Assembly (NCBI GenBank): GCA_025998755.1
Contig: AP024674.1
Coordinates: 876,467 to 940,466, forward strand
Source: Armatimonadota bacterium
GTDB lineage: Bacteria > Armatimonadota > UBA5829 > DSUL01
Reading direction: 5' to 3'
Length of the DNA stretch: 64,000 nt
The notes beneath the pieces were generated by a model. The model was given only the letters and a program-made list of their open reading frames with translations. It did no database searches and was not told the origin of the DNA. A program made the translations under genes and the position numbers. This document shows positions 2,197-40,062 of this stretch, one piece after another. Positions within the stretch are counted from its first letter, which is position 1; the number at the start of each line of letters is the position of its first letter.

Positions 2197-2273
2197 ACAG
2201 TTGCCAGGCTGAATACGGCGGGTTTTCGCAGGACGGGCGGGCGTTCGAAGTCGAGCGTGTTGACCCGTCCTGC

Positions 2274-3350
2274 TTGGCGCGTACGGGTTGGCTATGCACC
2301 CCTCACGGGCGTATTGAGACGCCTGCCTTCATGCCTGTGGCCACTCAGGGGACAGTGAAGGCCATGACGACGGAAGAGGTCTGGGACATTGGCTACCGGC
2401 TCATCCTGGCGAACACCTACCACCTTTACCTGCGTCCGGGAACGGAAGTCCTGCGTAAGGCCGGCGGGTTGCGTGGCCTGATGAAATGGCAAGGGGCGTT
2501 GCTGACGGACAGCGGAGGCTATCAGGTCTTTAGCCTGTCCGCCATCCGCAAGATCTCGGACGATGGTGTAATGATCCGCAGCTACATTGACGGCTCGCCT
2601 CACCATTTCACCCCGGAAAAGGTGCTGGACATACAGCGCGCCATCGGATCGGACATCGCCATGGTTCTGGACGTCTGCCCTCCTTATGGGGCCCCGCATG
2701 CCGAGGTTTCCAGGGCCGTGGACCTGACGGTTTCCTGGGCTGAGCGCTCTGCGGCGGCACGCGACGGGATTGCTCTGGTGTTTGGCATTGTACAGGGTGG
2801 ACCGTTCGAGGACCTTCGCCGGCGCTGTGCGGAAAAAATCTGCGATATCGGATTCGACGGCTATGCCATCGGTGGTGTGTCCGTGGGAGAACCGCCGCCG
2901 GAGGCTTACCGCATCGTGGAGTTGACGGCTCCTCTGTTGCCGGTGGACAAACCTCGTTATCTCATGGGCATGGGGACTCCACTGGATATCCTCAATGGCA
3001 TCGAGCGGGGGGTGGATCTCTTTGACTGCGTATTGCCGACCCGACTGGGCCGCAACGGCAGTGTGTATACATCCAGAGGACGGCTGAATCTGAAAAACGC
3101 TCGTTTTGCGGACGATCTGGGGCCAGTGGATCCGGATTGCTGTTGCCCCACGTGCAGCAAGTATTCCGCGGCTTACCTGCGTCATCTTTACAAGGCGGAA
3201 GAGATCCTTGCAGCCCGGCTCGCAACGATGCATAACCTTTGGCTTTACCACGATCTGGTCCGGCGAGCCCGCGAGGCCATCCGCCGGGGAGAGTTTCCGG
3301 CGTTCAAAGCTTCCGTCGAACAGGCGATGACAGCGGCGGATCAGGAGTGA
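2274..3350 (+). CDS. tgt: queuine tRNA-ribosyltransferase
   Basis: Motifs ETPAFMPVATQGTVKAMT, LILANTYHLYLRPG, DSGGYQVFSL and zinc site CCCPTCSKY; TTG 2274 is the first in-frame start, true N-terminus uncertain. Confidence 0.85.
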   Translation: MARTGWLCTPHGRIETPAFMPVATQGTVKAMTTEEVWDIGYRLILANTYHLYLRPGTEVLRKAGGLRGLMKWQGALLTDSGGYQVFSLSAIRKISDDGVMIRSYIDGSPHHFTPEKVLDIQRAIGSDIAMVLDVCPPYGAPHAEVSRAVDLTVSWAERSAAARDGIALVFGIVQGGPFEDLRRRCAEKICDIGFDGYAIGGVSVGEPPPEAYRIVELTAPLLPVDKPRYLMGMGTPLDILNGIERGVDLFDCVLPTRLGRNGSVYTSRGRLNLKNARFADDLGPVDPDCCCPTCSKYSAAYLRHLYKAEEILAARLATMHNLWLYHDLVRRAREAIRRGEFPAFKASVEQAMTAADQE

Positions 3351-3500
3351 GTGCCTGGTGAGCCGGTGTTTGGCGATCATGAGAGCGGGGCATCATAAAA
3401 ACGCGACGTTGTAGGAGACTGTGAGAGGAAAATCGCCCAACGAGGGAGCTGGGCGAGCGATACTGCTATCCGCCTTTGGGCTTCGGGGAGCCGCGGCAAT

Positions 3501-4220
3501 ATGGAAGTCGGTCAGAACGAAGGCATCTCCACAGGCCAGAAGCTGCGGAAGGCACGAGAGCAGAAGCAGCTTGCGCTTGAAGATATTGCACGACAGACCC
3601 GGATCCGCAAGGAGTTTCTTGAGGCGCTGGAAGAGGAGCGGCTGGACGCCTTTCCGGGCGCCGTGTATGCCCGGGCCTTCCTGCGGGAATACTCCGCCTT
3701 TCTGGGGCTGGACGGAGAGGATCTGGTGGCGTCCATGTTTCCTGAGAGCCAGCCCAAATCAGAAGGCTCCCCTGTTGCCTCTTCCTTTTCCCGCAAGAGC
3801 ACACCTGTGCCCCTGGTGGCGGTCGCGCTGTTAGCGGCTGCCGTGGTCGTCGGAGCGGTCTTGCTACGGCCGGCGCTCAATGTGGCGCCGTCTTCACCCC
3901 AAGTGGAGCCGGCACCGCAATCGCCGCCTGGAACTTGCGCTCCGTTGGATGTCGAAAGCAACGCCACAGTTAGCGGAGTCCGGCTGCGCATTCGCGCCGA
4001 GGCCCCATGCTGGATGCGCATCCAGTCTGGGGGACGGGTGCTCTATGAAGGCACTCTGCGCACCGGTGATTCGGTGCATTTCGCTTCACGCGAGGCCATC
4101 GTCCTGCTAGCCGGAAATGCGGGGGCTCTCCGTGTCCGGCACAACGAGGGAACTGAAGAGGTTCCGGGAAAATACGGTGAGGTCATCACGAGGGTCTTTG
4201 AACCGGCTAATGCCGATTGA
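3501..4220 (+). CDS. rodZ: RodZ-like cytoskeleton protein (HTH + TM + DUF4115-like domain)
   Basis: N-terminal XRE-type HTH (QKLRKAREQKQLALEDIARQTRI), one TM segment (PVPLVAVALLAAAVVVGAVLL), C-terminal beta-rich domain ending RVRHNEGTEEVPG. Confidence 0.6.
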   Translation: MEVGQNEGISTGQKLRKAREQKQLALEDIARQTRIRKEFLEALEEERLDAFPGAVYARAFLREYSAFLGLDGEDLVASMFPESQPKSEGSPVASSFSRKSTPVPLVAVALLAAAVVVGAVLLRPALNVAPSSPQVEPAPQSPPGTCAPLDVESNATVSGVRLRIRAEAPCWMRIQSGGRVLYEGTLRTGDSVHFASREAIVLLAGNAGALRVRHNEGTEEVPGKYGEVITRVFEPANAD

Positions 4221-4253
4221 CCTGCGAAACCGGGCATCTGAGAAACGGTCCAA

Positions 4254-5270
4254 ATGAGGGATATCTCGATGTGCTTAACCGTGAGAATTGTTCTGTCTGC
4301 CGTACTTTTGGCTCTTGTGGCGCCTTCCGCGCAAGGTCAGATTCTCGCCCACGATAGCGGCCAGATGGAGGAACTCGCCGATGTGGATACAGCAGGAATC
4401 TCCGTGCGCTTTCACTCCCCCTCAGAGGCCGACCTCACCGCATTCCAGTTTTACGGGTGTCGAGGAGGCGAGGGCGGCTCCCCTGCAGACTCGTTTTTCG
4501 TGAGATTAAAGGACGGTGAGGGAAACCTTCTCAGGGAGCTGGAGAAGCCTCTTTGGAATATCGGCGCAGGACGGGCGCTTTGGCAGACGGTTTCCATCAG
4601 CCCGCCCGTACGGGTGAACGGCGACTTCGAGATCCACGTTGCGGCTGATCCGCGCGCCGCAGCCTCCCTGCGGGTGGGACGCGACGGTCCAACTGACTCA
4701 GGACGCTGGATGGTTCGGGCTCATCTGCTGGATCCTTCGCGCGCTCCGGAACGTTCCGCCGCTAGGGGTCGCACGCGGCCGACCTCTGAGGGATCTACGG
4801 CCGCCCCGCGGGAGATCACGAAAGCTGCCGCGGAAAACCAGCCGCGGCGACTGATGGCCGCGCCTTCCCCTACCTCTCAGGGCGTTCTGGCCTATCGCGA
4901 CCAGCACCGGCGCTTGAGTTTTCCTCGCAAGCCGCCGCCGATCCCTCCCGGCTGCGGCAGGGTGGATATCCACTGGGATGCAGCGCCGGCGACGGTCGAG
5001 TTGAGCTATGTCGGAAAGCCGCCCCGGATACTGGAGGGGCTGGATGTCCGCCGTCTGGTTGTGGACTTTCCCGTCCCTGAACCGGGGCTTTTCGAAGTGA
5101 CCGTGAGGAAGGAGGGGTACCGCCCCGAATCACGGCGCTTCCTGGTATCGGCTGGCAGCAGGCACGAATGGCACATCCGGCTCCGAAGCGCCTCTGAGAC
5201 GGATGGTCGGGGAGAAAATCCGGGTCCGGAAGTTCCTCCTGTGGTGATTGAGGAGCTCGTCCAGCCCTGA
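4254..5270 (+). CDS. hypothetical secreted protein
   Basis: Signal peptide (IVLSAVLLALVAPSAQG); coding-like composition; antisense ORFs look non-coding; no family recognised. Confidence 0.5.
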   Translation: MRDISMCLTVRIVLSAVLLALVAPSAQGQILAHDSGQMEELADVDTAGISVRFHSPSEADLTAFQFYGCRGGEGGSPADSFFVRLKDGEGNLLRELEKPLWNIGAGRALWQTVSISPPVRVNGDFEIHVAADPRAAASLRVGRDGPTDSGRWMVRAHLLDPSRAPERSAARGRTRPTSEGSTAAPREITKAAAENQPRRLMAAPSPTSQGVLAYRDQHRRLSFPRKPPPIPPGCGRVDIHWDAAPATVELSYVGKPPRILEGLDVRRLVVDFPVPEPGLFEVTVRKEGYRPESRRFLVSAGSRHEWHIRLRSASETDGRGENPGPEVPPVVIEELVQP

Positions 5271-5276
5271 TGCGCT

Positions 5277-5957
5277 TCAACCGACCGGACGCCGGAAGAC
5301 GGCGCGGACGGGACTGCCATCGCTACCCGTGATTCTGAGCGGCAGGCAGATCAGCTCCCACCATCCCGGCTCGACATCCGTCAGGTCCAATCCCTCCACC
5401 GGAATAACGCCCGCCCGCAGCAGGGTTCTGTGCACCACCGGCTCGGGAGGCCGAAAGCGCTCCACGGAAAGGTAGTCAATACCCACCAGACGGATCTCCC
5501 GGCTCGCGATCCACTGCGCCGCGTCGGGGGAGAGGTGTGCGTAGTCGCGTGTGAACTGCCGCCGGTGCATCAAGTTTCGGGTGGTGTTAGCCGTGCGCAG
5601 GACCAGCCGCTCGCAGTTGTCGGGAACCTCTTCTAGGTTCGGCGGTTCAACAGGTCCCGTCACCGTCTCCAGGTTCAACACGTATGCCGGACCACACAGT
5701 ACCTCCAGTGGAAGCTGTTCTACTGCGGAACCTGCCGGGAGGAAGTGGCAAGGAGCATCGAGATGCGTGCCTGTGTGCACGGAAAGCGCAATCCGCGTGA
5801 TATTGCAGGAATCTCCTGCATCAAAGCTGGCGATGCGTTCGACCGAGACGGGGGGGTCTGTCTCCCAGACGGGGGTCAGGCCGCCGAGGGGAACCGTGGC
5901 GTCGACATAGCAAAAACTTCTATGGCTCTCCTTGTCCAAACTGTTAATATTTCTCAA
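5277..5957 (-). CDS. cyclase family protein (kynurenine formamidase-like)
   Basis: HxGTHxDxPxH motif (SVHTGTHLDAPCHF); overlaps the anti-sigma gene by 14 nt (same strand). Confidence 0.7.
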   Translation of the reverse strand: MRNINSLDKESHRSFCYVDATVPLGGLTPVWETDPPVSVERIASFDAGDSCNITRIALSVHTGTHLDAPCHFLPAGSAVEQLPLEVLCGPAYVLNLETVTGPVEPPNLEEVPDNCERLVLRTANTTRNLMHRRQFTRDYAHLSPDAAQWIASREIRLVGIDYLSVERFRPPEPVVHRTLLRAGVIPVEGLDLTDVEPGWWELICLPLRITGSDGSPVRAVFRRPVG

Positions 5958-6189
5958 GAAGGGCCCGGACTTTAGCCTTCAGTTCTTCCGGGCACTTTTC
6001 GCCGCGGCCTTCTTCCCGTACCCGCTGCCAAAGGAGCGCCTCGAACGCGAATCTGCTGCAACAGTGGCGGCAGAGATCCAGGTGGACCTCCACTTCCTCC
6101 AGCGACGCCGCTGGACCCTCCCTGTCCAGGTAATCGTAAAGGCGGCTGACGGCTTCAGCGCAGTTGATCTGCCTAACTCGATGCGACAT
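5944..6189 (-). CDS. anti-sigma factor (zf-HC2 type)
   Basis: 81-aa protein with HxxxCxxC motif (HLDLCRHCC); overlaps 3' end of the ECF sigma gene by 17 nt. Confidence 0.65.
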
Positions 6190-6748
6190 ATCCCATTTCG
6201 CGAGCTTGTTCGTAGAGAAACTTCTGTAGCAGCTTCCTACCGCGGTACAATCTGGACCGAACCGTGCCGATGGGAATGCCCAGGATGTCTGCTATCTCCT
6301 GGTAAGCCAGACCTTCGATGGCATTCAGGACCACCACCAGGCGGAACTCCTCCGGAAGACGGTCTATGGCCGCCATGATATCCTCGTGCAGGAACCTGTT
6401 GAGCACCTGCATCTCCGGATCGCTCGCCGATTCGCTTTGCCGTCGGACCTCGCTGAGGAAGTAGAAATCTTCTACATCCGGCAGGTCCACGCGTTCCGGT
6501 TCCTTTGACTTTTTGCGGTAGCCGTTGATGAAGGTGTTTGTCAATATCCGGAACAACCACGCCTTTATATTGGTTCCGGACTGGAACTGGTGGAAATTGC
6601 GGAACGCGAGCAAGACCGTCTCCTGGACCAGGTCTTCGGCGTCGGAGGAGTTTCGCGTCATCCTCAGCGCCGCGGAGTAGAGACTGTCGAGAAGTGGAAG
6701 GACCAGCTCTTCGAACTCTTTTTTGGCTGCTGTGTCGGATCCGGTCAT
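6173..6748 (-). CDS. RNA polymerase ECF-type sigma-70 factor
   Basis: Region 2 ([30 protein letters not shown]) and region 4 HTH ([21 protein letters not shown]); ORF-track start 6886 treated as N-terminal extension, ATG at 6748 chosen. Confidence 0.8.
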
Positions 6749-6976
6749 TGGGAACTGCTTCTGTCTTCGATAAGGCAGCCGGGCCATTTCCGCCCGGGGT
6801 GCGCCGGCGCCGTGCAGTATACTTCGTAAGTTCGCGCTCTGTCCAATGAACGGCGCGTCATCGTGCCGCAGGGAAGCCGACGCCAATCAATACGCGATTA
6901 CCCCGGGATACCGTTTCGGTAAACATTCCGGTGCCCAGGCCGAGAATCATCGCCGTGCGAATGGAGTGAATAGGAC

Positions 6977-7507
6977 TTGACAGACGACATGTTTCCTGTC
7001 TATTGCCGCTTTTGCCGGGCGCAGATTTCGGCTGGAGCCCGCACCTGCCCGCGCTGCGGGAAGCCCCAGGGACTGCAACCATCCTCGCCGCCCCCTGCCA
7101 CGGCGGAGCCGGCGCGCCCCGCGCCGGGTGCGGGACCTCCAGAATCAGCGGCAGCGCCAGCCGCAGCTGCTGCATGCCCTTACTGCAGGGTCTCCATTAC
7201 GCCTGGAGACTATTTTTGCCGTGCCTGCGGGAAAGCACTTGCCCCGGGATTGACTGATCCCGCCAAATCGGCGGCGGCAGCCGCCTATGGAACTGCCGGG
7301 CTCCTGAGCGTTCTGATGTGTTTTCCACCGGGCGGCATTATTCTTGGCATTTTGGCTGTGGCCAAGGGAGCTCGCGGCCTGGGACTGGCCAGTATTGTGG
7401 CAGGAGTCGGGATGATGGCGGTCGTGATTCTTCTCTACGCCGCGGCGCTTGGGCGTGTTCTGTCGGCCGTTCCGTCATTGGCGCCCTTTACGGATTTGAT
7501 GCCGTGA
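6977..7507 (+). CDS. zinc-ribbon domain membrane protein
   Basis: Two CxxC...CxxC zinc ribbons (CRFCRA...CPRCG; CPYCRV...CRACG), Pro/Ala-rich linker, two C-terminal TM helices; start TTG 6977 or ATG 6989. Confidence 0.5.
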   Translation: MTDDMFPVYCRFCRAQISAGARTCPRCGKPQGLQPSSPPPATAEPARPAPGAGPPESAAAPAAAAACPYCRVSITPGDYFCRACGKALAPGLTDPAKSAAAAAYGTAGLLSVLMCFPPGGIILGILAVAKGARGLGLASIVAGVGMMAVVILLYAAALGRVLSAVPSLAPFTDLMP

Positions 7508-28891: not shown

Positions 28892-29719
28892 ATGGATGGC
28901 TGGCGTCCGGGGATTTCCGTTGAAAACTGGAGCGTCTGGGTTTCTTCCTGCCGTCCGGCTCGAGTTGTCGGCGCTCTTGCTGCGTTGCTTGTCCTTCTTG
29001 TTCCGGCGCCCCTTGAAAGGGGCGTCCTCCCTCCCGGAGTAGTTGAATCGCGCGTGCTCCTGCGACGGGCACAACTGCTGGAAGCGCGCCCACGTCGCCG
29101 GGCTTATCACCCGCCGCACGTTGTCAAGGTCTGGATGGTGGAGCACCGCGGCAGGGTTTTCCGGTGCATCCAGCTCCCGCGATGCGAGCACTTGGAGGCC
29201 ATCCTCTCGCTGGACTGGAACGGCCAGACGCTGGAACAGGCCAAAAAACGGCACGGAGGCGTAGCCGCGTGCACCGACGGCTTCATTCACAGCCGCAACC
29301 TTACTCCGGCGGATTTCCTCCAGACGAACGGCCGCCGCCTTTCGCGCGCGCTCACGGGGCGTTGGATGCTTGTCATCCAGCAGAGCGGGGCGCTGGACAT
29401 TCACGGCAACTATTTCCTGGTGAAGGGCAAGGAGGGTGTCACGGCCGCAGCCCTGGGCCAGAGGCTGGTGCCTCTCGCGTATGACGGTTTCTCCAAAGCG
29501 TTCATGAACCGGGTTACCGACAGGATGGGCATAGGCATGACGAATCATCACATCTTCATCGCCGCCGGCCGTTCAGATATCTGGCGCTTCTCGAAGCTTT
29601 TCAGTGAAGTGCTTCACTGTAAGGTGGCCATCAACACGGACGGCGGTCACGTGGTGCGGGGACGGTCGTCCACACACATCGTGTTCAGGTGGAAGAGTCC
29701 ACAGCCGATAACCAGGTGA
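28892..29719 (+). CDS. hypothetical protein
   Basis: Coding-like ORF whose antisense ORF is Arg-rich junk; no confident family (NTDGGH motif loosely reminiscent of phosphodiester glycosidases). Confidence 0.35.
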   Translation: MDGWRPGISVENWSVWVSSCRPARVVGALAALLVLLVPAPLERGVLPPGVVESRVLLRRAQLLEARPRRRAYHPPHVVKVWMVEHRGRVFRCIQLPRCEHLEAILSLDWNGQTLEQAKKRHGGVAACTDGFIHSRNLTPADFLQTNGRRLSRALTGRWMLVIQQSGALDIHGNYFLVKGKEGVTAAALGQRLVPLAYDGFSKAFMNRVTDRMGIGMTNHHIFIAAGRSDIWRFSKLFSEVLHCKVAINTDGGHVVRGRSSTHIVFRWKSPQPITR

Positions 29720-30672
29720 GAGCGATTCACGAGGAGGAACCTGTGCTGTTCACACGTCACCCCGCCAATCCTGTCCTAGGGCCTTCAGATCTCTGGTGGG
29801 AATACAGAGCCACTTTCAACTGCGCCGCAGCCGAAAAAGACGGGCGCGTCTACCTGCTATATCGCGCGATCGGCGACGATCCCCTCTCGCGCCTGGGACT
29901 GGCCGTCTCGGAAGACGGCGTGCTTTTCGAGCGATATAATCTGCCGGTTTTCGAGGGCGATCCTGACAATCCCTGGGAAAGGCTGGGAGTAGAGGACCCG
30001 CGCGCAACGTTTCTAGACGGGACTTTCTACGTCACCTACGTCGCCGCCTCGGTGTATCCCGCCGGCCATCCGCGGCCGGCATTCAGTTTCGGAGCGCCCT
30101 GGCGAACACGGGTCTGTCTGGCCGCGACGGACGATCTCCAGAACTATCGCCGCTTGGGAGTCATTCTGCCCGATTCGGACAATAAAGACGTTGTGCTATT
30201 CCCGGAGAAGATCCGCGGGCGCTACTGCCTGATGCACCGGGAATACCCGGATATGTGGGTGGCATTTTCTGAAGACCTCATTCACTGGACGGACCATCGC
30301 CGCATTCTGTCTCCCCGGCCTGGTTACTGGGACTGCAATCGCATCGGGGCCGGAGCCCCGCCATTCAAGACGGAACTGGGGTGGGTGGAGATCTACCACG
30401 GCGTCGACGACGATCGCCGGTATATGGCGGGAATCGCGCTGCTTGATCTGGAAGATCCTTCCCGTGTCATCGGGCGATCAGCGGAGCCGCTCCTTGTGCC
30501 CTCAGAATGGTATGAGTGTGAGGGGCTGGTCCCGAATGTCTGCTTCCCGAGCGGTGTAATCGAGCGGGACGGGGTATTCTATGTCTACTACGGCGCCGCT
30601 GACAGATATGTGGCGCTGGCCACCGTCTCAAGAAAGGACCTGCTGGACTACCTGGCCCGCCTGAGAGAGTAA
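29689..30672 (+). CDS. glycoside hydrolase family 130 protein (putative beta-mannoside phosphorylase)
   Basis: GH130-type motifs ([52 protein letters not shown]). Confidence 0.7.
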
Positions 30673-30716: not shown

Positions 30717-32792
30717 ATGTCCACCGGTGAGGCTGCCGGCACAAAGAAACCCAACCGCCTGGCGGGGGAGACAAGCCCTTATCTCTTGCAGCACGCGTTC
30801 AATCCCGTTGACTGGTATCCGTGGGGAGAGGAGGCGTTCCGCGCAGCACGTGAACGCGATGTTCCCATCTTCCTTTCCATCGGCTACAGCACCTGCCACT
30901 GGTGCCACGTGATGGAGCGGGAGAGCTTTGAGAACGAAGAGACTGCCCGGATCCTGAACGAACATTTCGTCAGCATCAAGGTGGACCGCGAGGAGCGGCC
31001 GGACATCGACGAAGTCTATATGCAGGCGGCGCAGCTCCTGACCGGTGCCGGCGGCTGGCCTCTGAGTGTCTTTCTGACCCCGGATCTGCGCCCCTTTTAC
31101 GCTGGTACCTATTTCCCCCCCATTGATGCCTACGGCCGGCCGGGATTTCCGCGATTGCTTCAGGCGATAGCTCAGGCCTACCGTGAGCGTAGAGAGGATG
31201 TCGAAGCTAGTTGCTCTGATCTGAGCCAGGCTATAGTCCAGTCTCTGACCGGGCTAGAGCGTCCCGGTGACGTTGGCCTCGGAACGGTGCGAGAGGCAGG
31301 CCGCGAGATCCTGTCCACGTTGGACCCAGTTTTCGGGGGCTTCGGGAGCGCCCCGAAGTTTCCACCATGCTTTGCGCTCCAGCTCCTGCTGCGAGAGTAT
31401 CACCGCTGCGGCGAAACTTCGTTCCTGGACGCAGTCTCGTTGACGTTGGACCGGATGACGCAGGGAGGCATTTTCGATCACATCGGCGGCGGATTCCATC
31501 GCTATTCCACCGATCGCCAGTGGTTGGTGCCGCACTTTGAGAAGATGCTTTACGACAACGCGCTCATCCCGCTCGTGCTATTGGAGGGGTGGCAGGTGAC
31601 AAAGCGCGAGCAGTGGGCGGAGGCCGCGGCGCGGACGCTAGACTTTGTGCTGCGCGAACTGACCGGTTCCCACGGCGGTTTCCTGAGCGCTCTGGATGCG
31701 GACAGTGAGGGCGAAGAGGGCAGGTTCTACGTATGGACACCCGAAGAGGTGAAATCTGCTCTCGGGGAACGCGATGGAGAGTTGTTTTGCCTTGCCTACG
31801 GCATAACGCCTGAGGGAAATTTCGAACACGGGCGCAGCATCCCCCACCTGCAGAAGGATCTGGAGACGCTTGCGAGTGAGCTTGGCCTGGACCCGGACGG
31901 ATTCAAGCGGGACATTGCGCGAATGCGAGAGATCCTTCTCAACATACGTTCGCGAAGAGTTCCTCCACACCTGGACGACAAGGTTAACGTTTCCTGGAAC
32001 GGGCTGATGATCCGCACCCTTGCATTCGCTGCGCGAGTATTGGACCGACCGGGTTATCTGGACGGGGCGCGCCGTGCGGCCTCGTTCATCCTCGATGAGG
32101 TTCTCACAGACGGCGGACTTGCTCACTCCTGGCGCGATGGCCGGGCCGCGTTGCCCGCTTTCCAGGAAGACTATGCTTGCCTGCTGTTGGGGCTTGTGGA
32201 ACTCTATCAGGCGGACTTCGATGTGCGCTGGCTAAACGAGGCTGAGCGCTTGGGCGATGAAATGATCTCTCTCTTCCTGGACCGGGAGGGTGGGGGGTTT
32301 TACTCATCGCGTAAGTCCCACGAAACCCCGCTGGTGCGAAGCAAAAGTCCAACCGATGGTGTGACGCCATCCGGCAACTCGGCGGCGGCTCTCGCGCTCG
32401 CACGGCTGGGGAGGCTGCTAGGTCGGCAGGATTTCCTGGAAATCGCCAATCAGACCGTTCAGACTTTCGGCCAAGCGGCAGCTCGCGCGCCCCGGGCATT
32501 CGAGCATCTGCTGATCGCTGTGGACTATCTGGAGACCCCCTCGCAGGAGATTGTGCTTGCAGGCGATCCGGATACCTCGGAGTGGGCGGATCTGCGCGCC
32601 GTTACGGGATCCCTGTTTCTGCCCTGGAGCGTGCTCGCCTTTGCCGCCGGAACAGAAGACGACCCCGCTCCTGCGCGCGGCAAAATGGCGTCGGATAGGC
32701 GCGCAACGGCTTATGTCTGCCGGGACTTTGCCTGCCGGGCCCCCGTGTGCACAGCCTCGGATCTGGAGGCAGCGCTGACCGCGAGGGATTAG
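30717..32792 (+). CDS. thioredoxin-domain protein (DUF255/YyaL family, AGE-like C-terminal domain)
   Basis: N-terminal [22 protein letters not shown]...[20 protein letters not shown] signature of DUF255 family. Confidence 0.8.
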
Positions 32793-32798
32793 CGTGGC

Positions 32799-33326
32799 TT
32801 AATTTCTGCCGGGCGGGGTCTGGCGCGGTGGAGAGGCGCCCGTCGGCCTCTCATTCCGCACTTCCACCCGCCCGTCCATCCGCAGGATCAGAACGACCCT
32901 CTGCTGCCCCGCAGGCGCGTGCATGTCGCAGCGGATGACCGCCGCTTCCGGGGGAGTGGCATCGGTGGGACGGAAGTAACGGTATCCGGCTGGTTTCTTT
33001 TCATTCTTGTCTGTGGGGCACCGCAGCACGCTGTCCGTCTTGAGGAAGTCCGGATAGAGCATCTCCAGCTTCTCTGGATAACTCCGGTGCCTGTTGTGAT
33101 ATCGCTGAAGCGCGGCTCCCAGCTCGATCAGATTCCGCCGACAGGTCTCCACTTCCATCCACGAGCGGTACAACCGCGAAAGCGACCCGTCCCGGGACGA
33201 AACTGCGAGAAACAGCAGAACTGCCAACACACATAGAAGCAGCGCCGCAAGGCAGCCGATGCAGGCCATGGACCGCCCGGCGGACCGAATGGGGGGAACG
33301 CCGGGTCTCTCTTCGCGACTGGACAA
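32799..33326 (-). CDS. hypothetical membrane-anchored protein
   Basis: Single N-terminal TM (MACIGCLAALLLCVLAVLLFLAV) followed by soluble domain; antisense ORF non-coding-like. Confidence 0.45.
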   Translation of the reverse strand: MSSREERPGVPPIRSAGRSMACIGCLAALLLCVLAVLLFLAVSSRDGSLSRLYRSWMEVETCRRNLIELGAALQRYHNRHRSYPEKLEMLYPDFLKTDSVLRCPTDKNEKKPAGYRYFRPTDATPPEAAVIRCDMHAPAGQQRVVLILRMDGRVEVRNERPTGASPPRQTPPGRN

Positions 33327-33472
33327 AAGCGACCTCCGTCAAGTTGCCTGGGTCAGGCAGACCCCGTGCATCATAATCGGATGAGCTTTGCAGGGTCAAG
33401 ACAGGGAAACGGCACAACATCAAGCAACATTGGGTTGGGTCGGGAGGTCGGGGCGGGTATAACCCTGTAGCG

Positions 33473-33502
33473 TTGCCGGAGAGAAACTAAATCGGCAATA
33501 AT
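33473..33502 (+). promoter_or_regulatory. candidate sigma70-type promoter for sbtA
   Basis: TTGCCG (33473-33478), 18-nt spacer, AATAAT (33497-33502), about 45 nt upstream of sbtA start. Confidence 0.25.
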
Positions 33503-33548
33503 TCTGCAGGCTGTCCGGCGCGATTCACATAACCGGAGCGGGATACTC

Positions 33549-34484
33549 TTGGACCCTGTCATCCTGTTTTTCATTCTCGGTCTGGCAGCCGGGGCTGCGA
33601 AGGCGGACCTTCGCCTGCCGCCGGCCATCTATGATTTCCTCAGCGCTTATCTTCTGCTGGCCATCGGGCTCAAGGGAGGAATCGAGCTGTCGACCCAGTC
33701 GCTCGGTCCACTCATCCCGAAAGTGATCGTGGTGATGTTTCTGGCCTCTCTTCTTCCTCTCCTGGCTTATCCGGTACTGCGCCTCTTGGGACGGCTGGGC
33801 CAGGCGGACGCGGCATCGGTCGCCGCGCATTACGGGTCCGTCAGCGTTGGCACGTATGCCGTCGCGGTGGCCTTTCTATCTGCGCGCAGCATGTCCCACG
33901 AGAGCTATATGCCCCTTTTTCTTGCCCTGATGGAGATGCCAGCCATTGTTGTCGGCATTCTTCTGGCCAGGGGGATCACACGGGAAGTGCGTTGGGGTCG
34001 CCTGTTGCATGAAGTGTTCCTTGGGAAAGCTGTTGTGCTGCTGAGTGGCGGGTTACTGATCGGATGGGCGGCAGGCCCTGATGGATTCTCGTCGCTGGAA
34101 GCGTTTTACGGTGGTCTTTTCCGCGGCCTGCTCAGTCTGTTTCTGCTGGAGATGGGACTGCTCTGCGCCGGCCAAATCGGGGCGCTCCGAGGGGTGGGGG
34201 CGTTCCTTGTGGCATTCGGCATCCTGACGCCGGTGGTGTTTGGCCTGCTGGGATGTGCGGCGGGCACGCTGTTGATGAACCTGTCCGCAGGCGGTGCTGC
34301 GCTGCTTGGTGTACTGGCCGCCAGCGCATCGTATATCGCGGTGCCTGCAGCGATGCGCATCTCCGTTCCCGAGGCCAATCCGGCCATCTCGCTGGCGGCA
34401 GCACTGGGAGTTACGTTTCCGTTCAATGTCACCCTAGGAATACCCCTCTACGTTCGAATGGCGCAGTGGATGGCACGGTTCTAG
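33549..34484 (+). CDS. sbtA: sodium-dependent bicarbonate transporter family permease (SbtA/DUF897)
   Basis: N-terminus DPVILFFILGLAAGAAKADLRLPPAIYDFLSAYLLLAIGLKGG matches SbtA family; ~10 TM; TTG start with ggagcggg RBS. Confidence 0.75.
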   Translation: MDPVILFFILGLAAGAAKADLRLPPAIYDFLSAYLLLAIGLKGGIELSTQSLGPLIPKVIVVMFLASLLPLLAYPVLRLLGRLGQADAASVAAHYGSVSVGTYAVAVAFLSARSMSHESYMPLFLALMEMPAIVVGILLARGITREVRWGRLLHEVFLGKAVVLLSGGLLIGWAAGPDGFSSLEAFYGGLFRGLLSLFLLEMGLLCAGQIGALRGVGAFLVAFGILTPVVFGLLGCAAGTLLMNLSAGGAALLGVLAASASYIAVPAAMRISVPEANPAISLAAALGVTFPFNVTLGIPLYVRMAQWMARF

Positions 34485-34496
34485 GAAGGATTATCA

Positions 34497-34799
34497 GTGA
34501 GCACATTCCAGGCCAAACTTGTCACAATCATCACCGAGGCTCTTTTGGAAGAGGAGCTGACGCAGCGCCTTGTGGAGCTTGGGGCCACAGGCTACACCAT
34601 CTCGGATACGCGAGGGAGGGGGCATCGGGGCATCCGAGACGCCGGTTGGGAGCACGGCGCAAATATCCGCGTGGAGGTTCTCTGCGAGGAAGAGGTGGCC
34701 CGGCGCATCGCGGCGTTCCTTGTTGAGAACTATTACAGAGACTATGCAATGGTCGTTTTCATAGACACTGTGGAGGTTCTCCGTGAAAACCGTTTCTGA
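34497..34799 (+). CDS. sbtB: PII-like signalling protein SbtB
   Basis: 100-aa PII fold signature ([39 protein letters not shown]); GTG start 12 nt after sbtA stop. Confidence 0.75.
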
Positions 34800-35319
34800 A
34801 CAGGCCGCCACTGAATCCTCCGGCGTCCAGCCCCTCGTGGGCGTGATCATGGGCTCCAAATCGGACTGGGAGACTATGCGCCACGCATCAGAGACTCTGG
34901 AGCGGCTAGGGGTGCCGCACGAGGTCCGCGTGGTGTCCGCCCACAGAACGCCCGATGAGATGCGCCGCTATGCTACTGAGGCAAAGGCAAGAGGACTTCA
35001 GGTCATCATCGCCGGCGCGGGCGGGGCGGCCCATCTGCCGGGAATGACGGCTGCGTTCACCACGCTGCCCGTGCTGGGCGTCCCCGTTCAGACCAGCGCA
35101 CTGAACGGCATGGACTCGCTGCTTTCCATCGTCCAGATGCCCGGCGGCATCCCCGTTGGAACACTGGCGATCGGCAGGGCAGGGGCGGTGAATGCCGCTC
35201 TCCTGGCGGCGGCCATTCTGGCGCTTACACGCCGCGAGCTTCAAAGCAGGCTGGAAGAGCTGCGCGAACAGACAGCCCGCGAGGTGCTATCGTGTCCGGA
35301 TCCTCGCCTCCCCGGGTGA
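34783..35319 (+). CDS. purE: 5-(carboxyamino)imidazole ribonucleotide mutase
   Basis: Motifs [38 protein letters not shown]; GTG start overlaps sbtB 3' end by 17 nt. Confidence 0.9.
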
Positions 35320-36401
35320 GAACGGTCGGTATTCTTGGCGGGGGGCAGTTGGCCAGGATGTTGGCTCTGGCCGGCATTCCTCTGGGGCTGCGCTTCGTGT
35401 TCGCTTCTCCTCAGCCCGGAGAGTGCGCCTTCGAACTGGGCCGAGCCGTCGTAGCGGACTGGCGCAGCTTGGAGTCGGAACCAGGTGTTCTGGAGGAGGC
35501 AGATGTCGTCACTTGGGAATTCGAGAATATCTCGCTGCGCGCGTTGAGGCGGCTGCAGAAAATTCTGCCGGTGTTTCCCTCCCCGGAGATTCTGGCCGTC
35601 AAGCAAGATAGACTGCGGGAAAAGGAGGTATTCCGAAGCCTTGGCATTCCCACGGCGGATTTCGTGCCTGTAGATACTATTGAGGATGCGAGCCGAGCTT
35701 TTGAGATCCTCGGCAACCCGCTGGTGCTGAAGACGCGATCTCACGGGTATGACGGCAAGGGCCAGGTGGTGGCAAAGGATTTCGTGGATCTCGAACAAGC
35801 GGTCTCGCGCGGTGGGCATCTTCTGGCGGAGCAATTCGTGCAGTTCGATCGCGAACTCTCAGTGGTGGGCGTGAGAACGACCGATGGATGCCACAGCTTC
35901 TATCCCGTGACGGAAAACATCCACAGAGAAGGGATCCTCAGGGTATCGCGCTGCCGGCCAGACGATCCGAAATGGGGCGAGGCAACGGAATATACCCGGC
36001 GTTTGATGGATTACTTTGGCTACACAGGAGTGCTGGCGATCGAGTTTTTTGAGAAGGACGGCGGGCTGTTGGCGAACGAGTTTTCTCCCCGCGTTCATAA
36101 CACCGGCCACTGGACCATTGAAGGTGCGGAGACAAGTCAGTTCGAGAATCACTTGCGGGCTGTGGTGGGGTGGGAGCCGGGCAGCACCGCTCCCGTTGCC
36201 AGTGCCGCGATGGTGAACTGCATTGGACACCTGCCGGCCCCGGAAGATGTTGCCCGGATTCCCGGTGCGCACCTCCATATTTACGGAAAGGCGATCCGGC
36301 CGCGCCGGAAGGTGGGGCACGTAACCGTTCGAGCGGAGTCCCAGGCGGTGTTGGAGGAACGCCTGCAAGCAGTCGGCCGCCTGCTCAATGAGGCGATATA
36401 G
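35292..36401 (+). CDS. purK: N5-carboxyaminoimidazole ribonucleotide synthase
   Basis: ATP-grasp enzyme with [15 protein letters not shown]-terminus; overlaps purE by 28 nt. Confidence 0.85.
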
Positions 36402-36435
36402 GAAGCCGGAATAGCCGCTGCTACCTTCAAGGATA

Positions 36436-36466
36436 GAGGCCCGGGCGTTATCCGTCCCCGGGCCTC
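36436..36466. terminator. GC-rich hairpin between purK and tRNA-Ala (possible bidirectional terminator)
   Basis: gaggcccggg (36436-36445) pairs with cccgggcctc (36457-36466), 11-nt loop. Confidence 0.3.
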
Positions 36467-36473
36467 ATCCAAA

Positions 36474-36549
36474 TGGTGGAGCTGAGCGGATTCGAACCGC
36501 CGACCTCTTCCGTGCGAAGGAAGCGCTCTCCCAACTGAGCCACAGCCCC
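36474..36549 (-). tRNA. tRNA-Ala (anticodon CGC)
   Basis: Reverse complement GGGGCTGTGGCTCAGTTGGGAGAGCGCTTCCTTCGCACGGAAGAGGTCGGCGGTTCGAATCCGCTCAGCTCCACCA folds as cloverleaf: G3:U70 Ala identity pair, anticodon loop TTCGCAC, T-loop TTCGAAT, encoded CCA. Confidence 0.9.
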
Positions 36550-36728
36550 GTTCGCGCTGCCGGCCTCCCGCCCGGACACGCCAATTGCCGAGAACGACGT
36601 GTCCCGTTCAGCGGGGCTACGGGCAATGGCTGACAGCCGGCATTTCACCGAAACACCGCTTCAGCCTTCTTTACGCAGACTATTATAGCACACAGTCATC
36701 AGCCCGCCAGCGGGGGCTTTCCTGGAGC

Positions 36729-38171
36729 CTACTCACCTTGGCCGAGAGTGAACCCGGGCTCTCCATCATAAGAATACAGGTTTTCCGTTTTGATGATATC
36801 AAGCCCGGCATCCGTCAGGCATCCCAGAAGCTCCAGACATTTTCGGTAGCTTTCGGCCGACTGGTGGAAGCGGAACCGGCATCTCCAGTGGTCAGTGCAG
36901 AAAGTCTCGGGCAGACCCTCAGGATACACCTTCACACCTCGGTTGGTGATCAGCGACAGCTCGGTTCCGGGTGGGGCGGCGGCAAGCAGCTTGCTCGCAA
37001 GGGTCTCCGCATTCCGGCCCGCTTCATTCCAGAACAGGAAGACATCTATCCCCACCAGTTCCCGCACTGCGGCGGACGGATGGGAAAGCGAGACAGCCAC
37101 CGGCGTATTGCGATACTGGACAGGGGTAAGCTTTCTCGGTTCCTTTCCCAGTCTTGCAATCACTGCGTCGGCGAACGCTGCGGTTCCAACTTCATCCGCA
37201 CTCAGGCCCACTCTGTAGATATCCGGGGTGTGGATACCATCCTCAATCGTACAGAGCCAGGCGTTTTTAACGGTCTGGGCGGTTTCGCCCAGGCCCAGAT
37301 GAACCAGCATCTGGGTTGCGGCGATCAACAGCCCCGATGGATTGGCTACACCCCGGCCTGCAATATCCGGAGCGGAGCCGTGCACCGCCTCGAACATGGC
37401 CGCCTGCTCTCCGATGTTGGCTGACGCGGCAAGTCCGATGGAGCCTGTCAGTTGAGCCGCGATGTCTGAAAGGATATCCCCATACAGGTTGAGCGTCACG
37501 ATGACATCAAATGTCTCGGGGCTTGCCGCCAGCCGGGCAGAGCCGATGTCAATGATCATGTGATCGCTTTCGATGTCCGGGTACTCCGTGGAGATCTCGT
37601 CGAACACCCGATGAAACAGGCCGTCCGTGAGCTTCATGATGTTGTCTTTCGTCATACAGGTGACACGGCGGCGGCCAAAGGCGCGGGCATATTCGAAAGC
37701 GAAGCGGACGATCTTTTCGCATCCGGGCCGCGATACCAGCTTCAGAACCTGGGTGACCTCGGGGGTCTGTCGGTGCTCGATCCCGGCGTACAGGTCCTCT
37801 TCATTCTCCCGGATAATAACTAGGTTCATCCCCGGGTGAGGGGATGCAATGAAGGGGCTATACGCCTTGCACGGCCTGACGTTAGCGAACAGATTCAGGG
37901 TCTTGCGGATCGTGACATTGACGCTCTTGAAGCCCTTTCCCTGAGGCGTTGTCACAGGGCCTTTCAGCAGACACCCGGCGGCTCGGATCTTGTCCCAGGC
38001 ATCGGGGGATACGCCCGAAGTGATGCCGCGGCGATAGACGCTCTCGCCGAGCTCCAGAAAATCGTAATCCAGAGGAGCATCGGCCGCGTCCAGAATCCGC
38101 AGCACGGCTTCCGTGATCTCCGGGCCGATGCCATCACCGGGCGCCACCACACACCTTTTCCTGTCGCTCAT
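36729..38171 (-). CDS. isocitrate dehydrogenase (isocitrate/isopropylmalate dehydrogenase family, with ~130-aa C-terminal extension)
   Basis: Motifs VVAPGDGIGPEI, NLFANVRP, CMTKDNIMKLTDGLF, NLYGDILSDIAAQLTGSIGLAASANIG. Confidence 0.7.
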   Translation of the reverse strand: MSDRKRCVVAPGDGIGPEITEAVLRILDAADAPLDYDFLELGESVYRRGITSGVSPDAWDKIRAAGCLLKGPVTTPQGKGFKSVNVTIRKTLNLFANVRPCKAYSPFIASPHPGMNLVIIRENEEDLYAGIEHRQTPEVTQVLKLVSRPGCEKIVRFAFEYARAFGRRRVTCMTKDNIMKLTDGLFHRVFDEISTEYPDIESDHMIIDIGSARLAASPETFDVIVTLNLYGDILSDIAAQLTGSIGLAASANIGEQAAMFEAVHGSAPDIAGRGVANPSGLLIAATQMLVHLGLGETAQTVKNAWLCTIEDGIHTPDIYRVGLSADEVGTAAFADAVIARLGKEPRKLTPVQYRNTPVAVSLSHPSAAVRELVGIDVFLFWNEAGRNAETLASKLLAAAPPGTELSLITNRGVKVYPEGLPETFCTDHWRCRFRFHQSAESYRKCLELLGCLTDAGLDIIKTENLYSYDGEPGFTLGQGE

Positions 38172-38308: not shown

Positions 38309-39769
38309 TCATCCGAGGAACCGTCTGCGCAGAGCAGCCTGCAAAAGAAGATCGGCGACCTTGGCAGTCTGACCGGCTTCAAGCGACTCGCAGATCCTGC
38401 GCGTCAGCAGCACGTGCTCCTCGTCGGGCTCCCATTTCAGCCCGGCGTGCACGACTGCAGCCTGCAGATCCTGCGTCAGGAACGGGCTTTCCGGATCGGT
38501 GTAACGCAGCGCATCCGTCAGCTTCGCGCGGAACGAGGGATAGACGGAATCGAGGAACTCCAGATCCCGATCGCTTAACGACTCAAGTCCGAGGAGCTCC
38601 GGAGGGCAACCCAGGGAATACAGTGCGCAGGTGAAGGAGATGGCCCGCGGCAAGCTCACTCCGTCCAGTTCCCGCGCATATCCGAACAGTCCTATGTGGA
38701 GCTTGCGTGCCCGCCGTGGCGGAACGAATCTTGCTACCGCGTTAATGGACGGAGCAAGCTGGACGACCCGGCGGCGGTAAGCGCTGCTGTACGCCTGGAT
38801 GAGTGCCTGGGCGCGTCCCGGATCCACGGGAACGGGGGCTCCAATGGTTCTGTCTTTCAGAAAGGCGCAGGCTTGGCTTACCTCGGACACAGGATAATCG
38901 AACTTGAATGCTGACTGAATGGTGAAGGTCACCACGCTGGGATACTCCGCGCTGACGCGCTCCACCGTGCGCGGGCTAAGGCCGCCCCGGAACGGCGCTG
39001 AACCCATGCCTATGATAGGGCACAGGGGAATTCCTCTCTTCTGGCCAGTTTCATACAGTTGCTGCAGGGCCACCTTGTTGGCGAGCGCTGCGGCGGCCAG
39101 ACCGTAGTTCATCGCGGTGTCGGATCGCGCAAGGAACACCCGCTGATACTCCACATCCTTCCCGTCCAGATATTCCGTCAGGATTTCGCCGGCCCTGAGC
39201 ATTGTGGGAATGTCCTCAAACAGCGGGATGACATTGATTCGCGCCGGCCCAAAGTCACCGATCCACTGCGCCACCGTGATGTCCCCTTCTCGCACCGGCC
39301 TAAGCTGCCGCGCAATGATGAAGTCTTCGTAGTATTTGAAGACTCGGTTCAGGCAGCCAGCGGAGGTGGTCATAGGGAGGATCACCTCGAAGATCGGCGG
39401 TGGGGCGTCATCCCCGTAAAAGGCCCGGGCGGCGTCGAAAGACCGCGGAATGCTTTCCAGCGTCTCCAGGAGAATCTTGGCCTCGGCGCGCTCAACGGAC
39501 GGGTTCGGCACGCGAACAGTGAGCCGTAGATCCCGCCCCAGCACGTTCTGCCGGAAGAACTCCGGATAGAACGTGAGAAGTTTTTTCACCACGTGCGGGT
39601 CAATCTCTTTTCCCTCGACGTCCCACATCTGCTCATCGCAACCCAGATGCGAGTAGCAGTAGAACGCCTCGCGGATCTCGTCTTCTCCTGCCAGGACGGG
39701 GGAGGATGCGAAGAAGGGAACAGAAGCGTTATCGGGGTGTTGCGTGCTCATGCACCGCGAAACATTCAT
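38309..39769 (-). CDS. phosphoenolpyruvate carboxylase, archaeal type (PepcA-like)
   Basis: Hallmark N-terminus MSTQHPDN; ~500 aa; ATG 39769 preceded by ggag; ORF-track start 39832 treated as extension. Confidence 0.75.
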   Translation of the reverse strand: MNVSRCMSTQHPDNASVPFFASSPVLAGEDEIREAFYCYSHLGCDEQMWDVEGKEIDPHVVKKLLTFYPEFFRQNVLGRDLRLTVRVPNPSVERAEAKILLETLESIPRSFDAARAFYGDDAPPPIFEVILPMTTSAGCLNRVFKYYEDFIIARQLRPVREGDITVAQWIGDFGPARINVIPLFEDIPTMLRAGEILTEYLDGKDVEYQRVFLARSDTAMNYGLAAAALANKVALQQLYETGQKRGIPLCPIIGMGSAPFRGGLSPRTVERVSAEYPSVVTFTIQSAFKFDYPVSEVSQACAFLKDRTIGAPVPVDPGRAQALIQAYSSAYRRRVVQLAPSINAVARFVPPRRARKLHIGLFGYARELDGVSLPRAISFTCALYSLGCPPELLGLESLSDRDLEFLDSVYPSFRAKLTDALRYTDPESPFLTQDLQAAVVHAGLKWEPDEEHVLLTRRICESLEAGQTAKVADLLLQAALRRRFLG

Positions 39770-40062
39770 CGTGAACAATCTCCAGAAGGGGCGTGCGTAT
39801 TTGTGGCACCAGCGCAGTTCAGGGACGGTCAATCACGGCAGTATACCCCGAAAGAAAGCGTCCTGGTGTCCAGCGGAGAACCTGTCACCGGCGAAGCAGT
39901 GCACACCGGGGCAGGTTGTTGCGGCGTATGACGTGATTGAAATCCGCCCTTGCGAGCAGTGGAGGAGGAAGGCGGCTGGGCAGTGGAGGGCCCAAATTTG
40001 TGCTGGGGGACGAGCGAGGTAAGCTGATAGCCAAACTTTTTGAAATCCCTACGGAAAAAGTC

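Follow-up and report, generated by a model that had tools for sequence, protein, structure and literature searches.

A predicted operon joining the putative bicarbonate transport genes sbtA-sbtB to purE-purK in an Armatimonadota bacterium, and the recurrence of this linkage across phyla

The sbtA-sbtB-purE-purK locus

The genome of an uncultured Armatimonadota bacterium (assembly GCA_025998755.1) carries a compact cluster of four genes, sbtA-sbtB-purE-purK. It was studied in a stretch of 64,000 nucleotides (nt), called the window here (contig AP024674.1, 876,467 to 940,466), in which the cluster spans positions 33549-36401 of the plus strand. Its first two genes encode a permease of the SbtA family and the PII-like protein SbtB, and the other two encode PurE and PurK of purine biosynthesis. 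An earlier note, made from the sequence alone, had described the four genes as overlapping or abutting members of one operon and had proposed dedicated bicarbonate import feeding purine biosynthesis. The linkage of sbtA with purE-purK (purEK) was followed through other genomes, and the proposal was weighed against other explanations.

All four open reading frames (ORFs) are present on the plus strand as described (Table 1), each preceded by a ribosome-binding site, and their packing could be corrected in part. The sbtA and sbtB genes do not overlap but are separated by a 12-nt spacer containing GGAAGG. The proposed 17-nt overlap of sbtB and purE holds with the purE start at GTG 34783, a start supported because the resulting 16-residue N-terminal extension of PurE is kept in the relative with 89% SbtA identity. 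The 28-nt overlap first given for purE and purK applies only to the longest purK ORF, starting at 35292. In an alignment with five relatives, conservation of the PurK N-termini begins at the site matching GTG 35316. This GTG, giving a 4-nt GTGA overlap with the purE stop, is the more likely start because the PurK proteins of the relatives align and start there. Whichever purK start is used, the junctions leave no intergenic space for a promoter or terminator of their own. A consensus scan returned no terminator-like sites at the gene junctions and no promoter-like sites inside the operon. By strand, packing and the order kept in relatives, sbtA-sbtB-purE-purK is predicted to be a single operon, presumably read as one transcript.

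The permease belongs to the SbtA family, as had been assumed before any profile search. It matches the whole Sbt_1 profile of Pfam (PF05982, profile positions 1-308 of 308; E 4.5e-112, 374.8 bits against a cutoff of 27), and the identical protein in NCBI is named 'sodium-dependent bicarbonate transport family permease [Armatimonadota bacterium]'. No NCBIfam equivalog model was found for it. Both inverted repeats align to Synechocystis SbtA (7CYE; E 7.7e-29, the halves with E 7.8e-09 and 7.9e-19), and the cytoplasmic loop of about 55 amino acids (aa) that lies between the repeats of 7CYE is missing. Residue roles were transferred from the cryo-EM structure of Synechocystis SbtA via the 7CYE alignment; the Na+ ligands of that protein are main-chain oxygens (PMC8352866). 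The TM4a/TM9a segments of the Na+ site are kept (F110-G111-A112 as Y95-G96-S97, A320 and S322 as A257 and S259). Of the four ligands of the bicarbonate (HCO3-) site, two are kept, S114 as S99 and S324 as S261, and two are replaced; in Synechocystis the site is itself a docking model. Characterised SbtA works as a Na+/HCO3- symporter, and the T-loop of SbtB gates it according to the adenine-nucleotide state (PMC8352866; PMC9974498). Family members from Proteobacteria also transport HCO3- (PMC10880623), and so does the distant SbtA2 clade, which is only about 25% identical to SbtA1 (PMC13187645). Bicarbonate is a plausible substrate by homology, and the window protein is a putative Na+/HCO3- symporter (Transporter Classification 2.A.83).

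The second gene encodes a PII-like protein as proposed, with a match to the Pfam family P-II (PF00543, E 2.7e-22, 79.5 bits). The closest solved relative is TTHA0516 of Thermus thermophilus (2CZ4, E 1.5e-22), and the cyanobacterial SbtB structures 5O3P, 6MM2 and 7CYF are matched at about E 4e-13. The T-loop GRGHRGIR aligns with GKGSRNVR, and the pattern R-G-x-G-x-x-G-x-R is invariant in 12 family members. In Synechocystis SbtB, R43 and R46 bind the nucleotide phosphates and dock onto SbtA (PMC9974498); both arginines are conserved in the window protein, whose T-loop is 4-5 residues shorter than the cyanobacterial one. The redox-active R-loop CGPxGC is absent, and the C-terminus reads ...VEVLRENRF. 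This is no strict bar to membership among SbtB proteins because the SbtB of Cyanobium also lacks the R-loop (PMC9974498). On the strength of the RxxR motif in the T-loop and the solved homologues, SbtB is predicted to act as a nucleotide sensor.

PurK exceeds the curated cutoffs of both NF004679 (402.5 bits against 326) and TIGR01161 (348.5 against 318.4), carries the pre-ATP-grasp, ATP-grasp and PurK_C domains of Pfam, and is closest to 3AW8 among solved structures (E 3.5e-103). By these matches it is assigned as a bona fide synthetase of N5-carboxyaminoimidazole ribonucleotide (N5-CAIR), an ATP-grasp enzyme using HCO3-. PurE matches AIRC (E 2.2e-65) and TIGR01162 (223.4 bits against a cutoff of 149.6), and every one of its best matches in the PDB is a class I N5-CAIR mutase (6O55, E 7e-63; E. 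coli 1QCZ). It also contains the motif SAHRTP, which we take to be a mark of class I PurE. These features assign PurE as a class I N5-CAIR mutase, predicted to depend on PurK. The bicarbonate dependence on which the original proposal was built holds, because PurK is an N5-CAIR synthetase by its domain and profile matches and PurE is of the class that depends on it. Loss of purK in E. coli is remedied by high CO2. PurK uses HCO3- and ATP, PurE alone works only at very high concentrations of dissolved inorganic carbon (DIC), and cyanobacterial purK mutants need high CO2 (PMC10880623).

Table 1 Positions of the four genes and of neighbouring features in the window
Feature	Position	Strand	Remarks
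GH130 gene	29689-30672		near the operon
Divergent ORF, 175 aa	32799-33326	-	no Pfam or NCBIfam match
Putative operon promoter	33435-33463	+	TTGGGT-17 nt-TATAAC; predicted
sbtA, 311 aa	33549-34484	+	TTG start; GGAG 10 nt upstream
sbtB, 100 aa	34497-34799	+	GTG start 12 nt past sbtA stop
purE, 178 aa	34783-35319	+	GTG start; GGAGG at 34772-34776, 6 nt upstream
purK	35316-36401	+	likelier start GTG 35316; 369 aa as longest ORF from 35292
GC-rich hairpin	36436-36466		no T-tract; between purK stop and tRNA-Ala
tRNA-Ala(CGC)	36474-36549	-	convergent to operon
Isocitrate dehydrogenase	36729-38171	-	convergent, just downstream of operon
Phosphoenolpyruvate (PEP) carboxylase, archaeal type	38309-39832	-	PF14010, E 1.9e-180; convergent, 2 kb past operon

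Between sbtA and the divergent 175-aa ORF lies a region of 222 nt. The putative promoter in this region is likely to drive the operon: its GGGTATAACC block is kept upstream in the relatives with 89% and 79% SbtA identity, together with a TTG, part of the -35 element, that sits 17 nt above the block. A further consensus match at 33473-33502 was discarded as the main promoter since the segment is absent from the 79% relative; the choice between the two is a prediction. When positions 32500-37000 were scanned with Rfam (E <= 1), the tRNA was the only match and no purine, ZTP or cyclic di-AMP (c-di-AMP) riboswitch was detected; a riboswitch or leader RNA upstream of sbtA was accordingly rejected. 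The divergent ORF borders the intergenic region that holds the putative sbtA promoter and has a conserved TATGAT -10-like element on its own strand; ORFs of 175 aa and 155 aa occupy its place in the 89% and 79% relatives.

Downstream, the 86-nt RNA segment 36395-36480, which includes the hairpin, has a folding energy of -38.6 kcal/mol (z = -3.0 against shuffled sequences). The hairpin probably marks the end of the operon and is possibly a bidirectional terminator. The position of the PEP carboxylase gene is kept in the two close relatives, and in the 79% relative it abuts purK directly.

Recurrence of the linkage and other neighbours of sbtAB

In order to survey the linkage, one genome per species was scanned with an SbtA alignment. 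This gave at least 595 confirmed loci, and the 80 best matches to the query subfamily were kept, which is not a random sample of the family. They were searched by tblastn with SbtB, PurE and PurK of the window, and gene calls were filtered by GC content at third codon positions because of antisense ORFs in high-GC genomes. At 18 of the 80 loci, both purE and purK are found no more than 6 kb from sbtA, in every case on its strand; the matches at one of these loci (L032) are partial only. By chance, purEK would be expected within this distance at about 0.3-0.4% of loci. The binomial probability is about 1e-26 in a naive calculation (expected frequency 0.004) and about 1e-12 when only 10 independent events are counted. 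The linkage of sbtA with purEK is far beyond chance.

The linked loci span at least six gene orders. The order of the window, with sbtA, sbtB, purE and purK in succession, occurs at seven loci. Five others have sbtA-purE-purK with no sbtB and form a monophyletic clade of marine Gammaproteobacteria. At three loci, purE-purK is followed after a gap of 1-2 kb by sbtA, with or without sbtB. Single loci show purE-purK-sbtA-sbtB, purE-purK-sbtA (Planctomycetota), and purK at a distance from purE-sbtA-sbtB (Limisphaera, Verrucomicrobiota). In neighbour-joining (NJ) trees, the linked loci fall into at least 10 separate clades among 90 SbtA sequences, and the linked PurK sequences form three clades. 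Because there are three PurK lineages and at least six gene orders, the linkage must have arisen or been rearranged repeatedly. It is found in at least six phyla, namely Armatimonadota, Planctomycetota, Tectimicrobiota, Pseudomonadota, Verrucomicrobiota and Deinococcota. The possibility, raised at the outset, that the arrangement is peculiar to this genome is set aside by this survey. The linkage is frequent and not obligatory.

Close relatives of the window keep both the operon and its surroundings. The relatives with 89% and 79% SbtA identity agree with the window in the order of the four genes and in the genes around them, which are GH130, a DUF255 thioredoxin-like gene, the small divergent ORF and the downstream PEP carboxylase. 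The GC content is even over the whole window (0.60-0.63), and with these stable flanks the operon is no obvious recent island. At 63-69% SbtA identity, homologues from Planctomycetota and Candidatus Tectimicrobiota have sbtA-sbtB-purE-purK with 4-nt overlaps, and in one homologue of this range sbtA-sbtB-purE is followed by an unrelated gene. Over the whole set, sbtB directly follows sbtA in 70 of the 80 loci.

One contig of the set deserves a separate remark. It is labelled 'MAG: Klebsiella pneumoniae', i.e., as a metagenome-assembled genome (MAG) of that species (L012, CAMDVY010000056.1), and has all four genes in the order sbtA-sbtB-purE-purK. Its SbtA and the Armatimonadota protein are 61% identical. 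The PurK of this contig groups with those of Chromatiales and Thiohalomonadaceae, and the contig looks mis-binned or mislabelled.

Thermus loci were retrieved because the best solved relatives of SbtB and PurK are Thermus proteins. In T. thermophilus (L092) and T. oshimai JL-2 (L093), 3393-6303, purE-purK and sbtA-sbtB are transcribed divergently from a shared spacer of 47 nt. Thermus adds the sixth phylum and a further arrangement, which implies co-regulation beyond operon inheritance alone. The sbtB gene of T. thermophilus is TTHA0516 (PDB 2CZ4), a protein from structural genomics that is still labelled 'hypothetical' or 'P-II family nitrogen regulator', and a GH130 gene abuts purK in this species.

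Homologues of sbtA also occur in 17 plasmid records. The four-gene cassette was looked for there in two plasmids, which carry either sbtAB without purEK or an unannotated sbtA beside a Tn3 transposase. For instance, the conjugative plasmid NZ_CP015734.1 of Arthrobacter sp. U41 (L090) has sbtA-sbtB at 4929-6181. The SbtB-like gene of this plasmid is annotated as 'transcriptional regulator', and the homologues of Thermus and Meiothermus bear the same name in NCBI; this label is likely a misannotation.

A Pfam census covered the genes directly on either side of sbtA(-sbtB) at the 80 loci. PurE is the commonest downstream neighbour (10 of 76 genes), followed by LysR (6), beta-carbonic anhydrase, Sua5/TsaC and glutaminase (3 each) and purC (1). 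Among the 75 upstream genes, LysR leads (12), before the carboxyltransferase/biotin carboxyl carrier protein (BCCP) subunit of two-subunit pyruvate carboxylase (6-7) and PurK (3). Proton_antipo_M (DabB/Mrp-type, 2), SulP (1) and a member of the chromate-transporter family (1) are rarer. An LysR-type regulator adjoins sbtAB at 18 of the 80 loci, and PurE is the most frequent neighbour of sbtAB that is not a regulator. A gene for a regulator of the MarR/helix-turn-helix type lies directly upstream of sbtA in relatives from Tectimicrobiota and Gemmatimonadales (L087:4464-4763, L088:4663-5004). No regulator gene adjoins the operon in the window.

Pyruvate carboxylase is the second HCO3--dependent carboxylase with which sbtAB is repeatedly paired. 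At six loci (L028, L029, L031, L036, L038 and L041, about 2100-7240), ORFs of about 480 aa and 600 aa are followed by sbtA-sbtB. By Pfam, the 480-aa ORF is a biotin carboxylase in L028 and L029, and the 600-aa ORF is a carboxyltransferase/BCCP subunit in L029. The biotin carboxylase subunit precedes the carboxyltransferase subunit in L029, from Ectopseudomonas oleovorans, and in L028, which comes from an unclassified gammaproteobacterial MAG, and the other Pseudomonas and Stutzerimonas loci have ORFs of matching size in the biotin carboxylase position. In Stutzerimonas and P. guineae, a glutaminase gene comes after sbtAB (L038, L040, L041). Sua5/TsaC stands directly 3' of sbtB at three loci from Wenzhouxiangellaceae and a Burkholderiales MAG (L009:7298-8287, L046:7270-8223, L047:6020-7006), and in the Burkholderiales MAG purEK is present too, 1 kb upstream of sbtA.

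Pyruvate carboxylase and PurK are both ATP-grasp enzymes that activate HCO3-, and Sua5 makes threonylcarbamoyl-AMP from HCO3-/CO2. The recurrent enzyme neighbours have inorganic carbon as their common denominator, which argues that bicarbonate is the substrate of the permease. Their variety also argues against a module that serves purines exclusively. PEP carboxylase was considered as a general partner of sbtAB and rejected: it is adjacent only in the lineage of the window (window, L081 and L082) and is outside the 25 most frequent flanking families of the 80 loci.

Proposed bicarbonate supply and competing explanations

The explanation that we favour, and regard as probable, is that at low CO2 SbtAB provides PurK, and probably other carboxylases too, with bicarbonate in the cytoplasm. 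SbtA, by homology a trimeric Na+/HCO3- symporter of the elevator type, would raise the cytoplasmic HCO3- concentration. PurK would use this HCO3- together with ATP to carboxylate 5-aminoimidazole ribonucleotide (AIR) to N5-CAIR, and class I PurE would convert N5-CAIR to CAIR (4-carboxy-5-aminoimidazole ribonucleotide). SbtB, a PII-like trimer, probably binds adenine nucleotides; its T-loop would enter SbtA and gate or plug it according to the energy status, with the transporter being shut at a low adenylate energy charge. A single transcription unit of translationally coupled genes would couple import to the one step at which purine synthesis de novo consumes bicarbonate, and the benefit would be prototrophy for purines when ambient CO2 is low. 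HCO3- brought in by SbtA would form a free pool that the neighbouring PEP carboxylase and other enzymes could draw on as well, a supply line rather than an exclusive channel. We infer the substrate, the direction of transport, nucleotide sensing and the physiological role from homology and gene context. The host, known as an Armatimonadota MAG, is presumably heterotrophic.

Of the original formulation, the part that has bicarbonate feeding purine biosynthesis is sustained by the protein identities and the recurrent linkage. The word 'dedicated' is too strong because sbtAB elsewhere adjoins other HCO3- enzymes (pyruvate carboxylase, Sua5, beta-carbonic anhydrase) or nothing relevant, and in the window itself PEP carboxylase lies 2 kb away.

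Several observations weigh against a supply of bicarbonate to PurK. About three quarters of the related sbtAB loci, a set drawn from the query subfamily, lack purEK in their vicinity, and in two homologues with 63-69% identity sbtAB stands alone. In five loci (L052, L054, L059, L063 and L076), sbtA-purE-purK stands without sbtB between the genes or nearby. These are the loci of Halioglobus, Neptuniibacter, Kangiella, an Alteromonadaceae bacterium and a gammaproteobacterial MAG, and because this whole clade keeps sbtA-purE-purK, the regulator is not needed for the link between transporter and purEK. Promoters within the coding sequence of the operon may also exist. As for the permease, its identity to the solved and characterised SbtA1 proteins is low (about 25-30%), and only two of the four docked HCO3- ligands are conserved, Y140 being replaced by L125 and S327 by A264.

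These last two points are also the ones that would favour a permease of the SbtA family carrying another solute, such as a small anion or a nucleotide-related metabolite coupled to Na+, with bicarbonate being an artefact of naming. The missing cytoplasmic regulatory loop and the lack of an NCBIfam equivalog model fit such an explanation, as does the formate/nitrite transporter adjoining one sbtA locus (L042). It is nevertheless unlikely. Unrelated families of HCO3- enzymes (PurK, pyruvate carboxylase, Sua5 and beta-carbonic anhydrase), and also Proton_antipo_M, recur beside the same permease clade, and inorganic carbon is the sole feature that these neighbours have in common. SbtA2, at a similarly low identity to SbtA1, does transport HCO3-, and in the window the backbone motifs of the Na+ site and two serine ligands are kept.

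A role of SbtAB in pH/Na+ balance or in general inorganic-carbon balance was given an equally low probability. SbtB would then act as a valve, a role proposed for it in a preprint (10.1101/2023.08.10.552651), and purEK would be co-expressed merely because both pairs are growth-related housekeeping genes, with no substrate supply aimed at PurK. The many sbtAB loci without purEK, sbtAB standing alone on conjugative plasmids and the LysR regulators as commonest neighbours agree with this role. Yet purE and purK are the only housekeeping genes that recur beside sbtAB, other pur genes being represented by one purC, and the remaining recurrent enzymes are all HCO3--dependent. Furthermore, the many gene orders, including the Thermus divergon, argue for selection on the co-regulation of these particular genes.

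Neutral hitch-hiking of a horizontally spread cassette, with no functional interaction between its genes, is the least credible of the explanations: sbtAB does occur on plasmids, and the PurK proteins of the sbtA-sbtB-purE-purK loci of Gammaproteobacteria, Planctomycetota, Tectimicrobiota and Armatimonadota cluster in the NJ tree in a way compatible with transfer as a unit, but the three PurK lineages, the variety of gene orders and the stable flanks and even GC content of the window lineage speak against it, and transfer as a unit is itself predicted by selection on co-function.

Beyond the supply of bicarbonate to PurK, a wider proposal can be made tentatively, and we hold it to be somewhat doubtful. 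SbtAB may be a portable bicarbonate-supply module that was recruited repeatedly and independently, in at least six phyla of non-photosynthetic bacteria, beside whichever HCO3--dependent enzyme limits growth at low CO2. This would mostly be PurK/PurE, or else two-subunit pyruvate carboxylase or Sua5. Where purEK is linked, SbtB, by sensing adenine nucleotides, would close a feedback loop in which end products of purine synthesis gate the import of its inorganic substrate. Such end-product feedback through SbtB is an attractive hypothesis.

Inorganic-carbon transporters have been studied almost only within autotrophic CO2-concentrating mechanisms. They are widespread in heterotrophs, and their role there has been largely guesswork. 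The conserved link to purEK, pyruvate carboxylase and Sua5 names reactions that bicarbonate import may serve. If true, it would be a way for non-photosynthetic bacteria to sustain purine synthesis under scarce CO2, with a bearing on CO2-dependent bacterial growth and on the engineering of bicarbonate-dependent pathways. The prediction is that sbtA mutants would be high-CO2-requiring strains remediable by purines. T. thermophilus is a tractable carrier, and the closest solved PurK and the SbtB-like protein of this species already have structures.

Comparison with known systems

The earlier note knew of no such operon type, and a search of open-access full text likewise found no description of sbtAB-purEK as a conserved unit, neighbourhood databases lying outside that search. 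No description of sbtAB beside pyruvate carboxylase or Sua5, or of SbtAB as a supply module recruited in the way proposed above, was found in open-access full text either. A 2024 review of DIC toolkits treats SbtA and PurK in separate, unlinked sections.

The cyanobacterial sbtA-sbtB pair (Synechocystis slr1512-slr1513; 7CYE, 7CYF, 7EGK) consists of the same two families in the same order. It has in common with the window both inverted repeats, the crossover motifs of transmembrane helices 4 and 9 (TM4/TM9) and the RxxR of the T-loop. The window SbtA is shorter (311 aa against 374 aa in Synechocystis) and lacks the loop, and the window SbtB differs in the shorter T-loop and the absent R-loop. 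Unlike the cyanobacterial pair, the window operon runs on into purE-purK and stands outside a carboxysome/RuBisCO CO2-concentrating mechanism. In the stand-alone purEK operons of E. coli and many other bacteria, a class I PurE likewise comes first and PurK second, the stop codon of the one overlapping the start codon of the other. In contrast to these, the window purEK lacks a promoter region to itself and lies downstream of a putative bicarbonate importer and its regulator.

The DAB/MpsAB systems (S. aureus mpsAB; Halothiobacillus DAB) embody the same idea, inorganic-carbon uptake that feeds the carboxylases of a non-autotroph. MpsAB/DAB enables a heterotroph to live on atmospheric CO2 levels by supplying its bicarbonate-dependent carboxylases, and for this system the need of heterotrophs for such uptake in bicarbonate-dependent biosynthesis is established (PMC6689103). 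The family is unrelated, and it takes up CO2 with vectorial hydration, unlike SbtAB. A linkage of DAB/MpsAB to purEK is not reported in the searchable open-access papers.

AmtB-GlnK has the same architecture as SbtA-SbtB, a membrane transporter gene followed by the gene for a PII trimer whose T-loop gates the transporter. In contrast to the window, the substrate is ammonium, the PII protein is canonical and the substrate-consuming enzyme is not part of the operon. A functional analogy is offered by the mammalian mTORC1-SLC4A7 axis, in which the regulated import of bicarbonate boosts the synthesis of nucleotides de novo (Ali et al. 2022, as cited in PMC10912719). That axis relies on a eukaryotic SLC4 transporter under translational control, with no operon, and the mammalian AIR carboxylase uses CO2 without PurK, unlike the window pathway. 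With the purEK linkage, the PII-like SbtB would gain a non-photosynthetic context and the SLC4A7-nucleotide synthesis axis a bacterial parallel. The parts, sbtAB and purEK operons, are known, and their combination is a variant of known systems that holds little surprise for a specialist.

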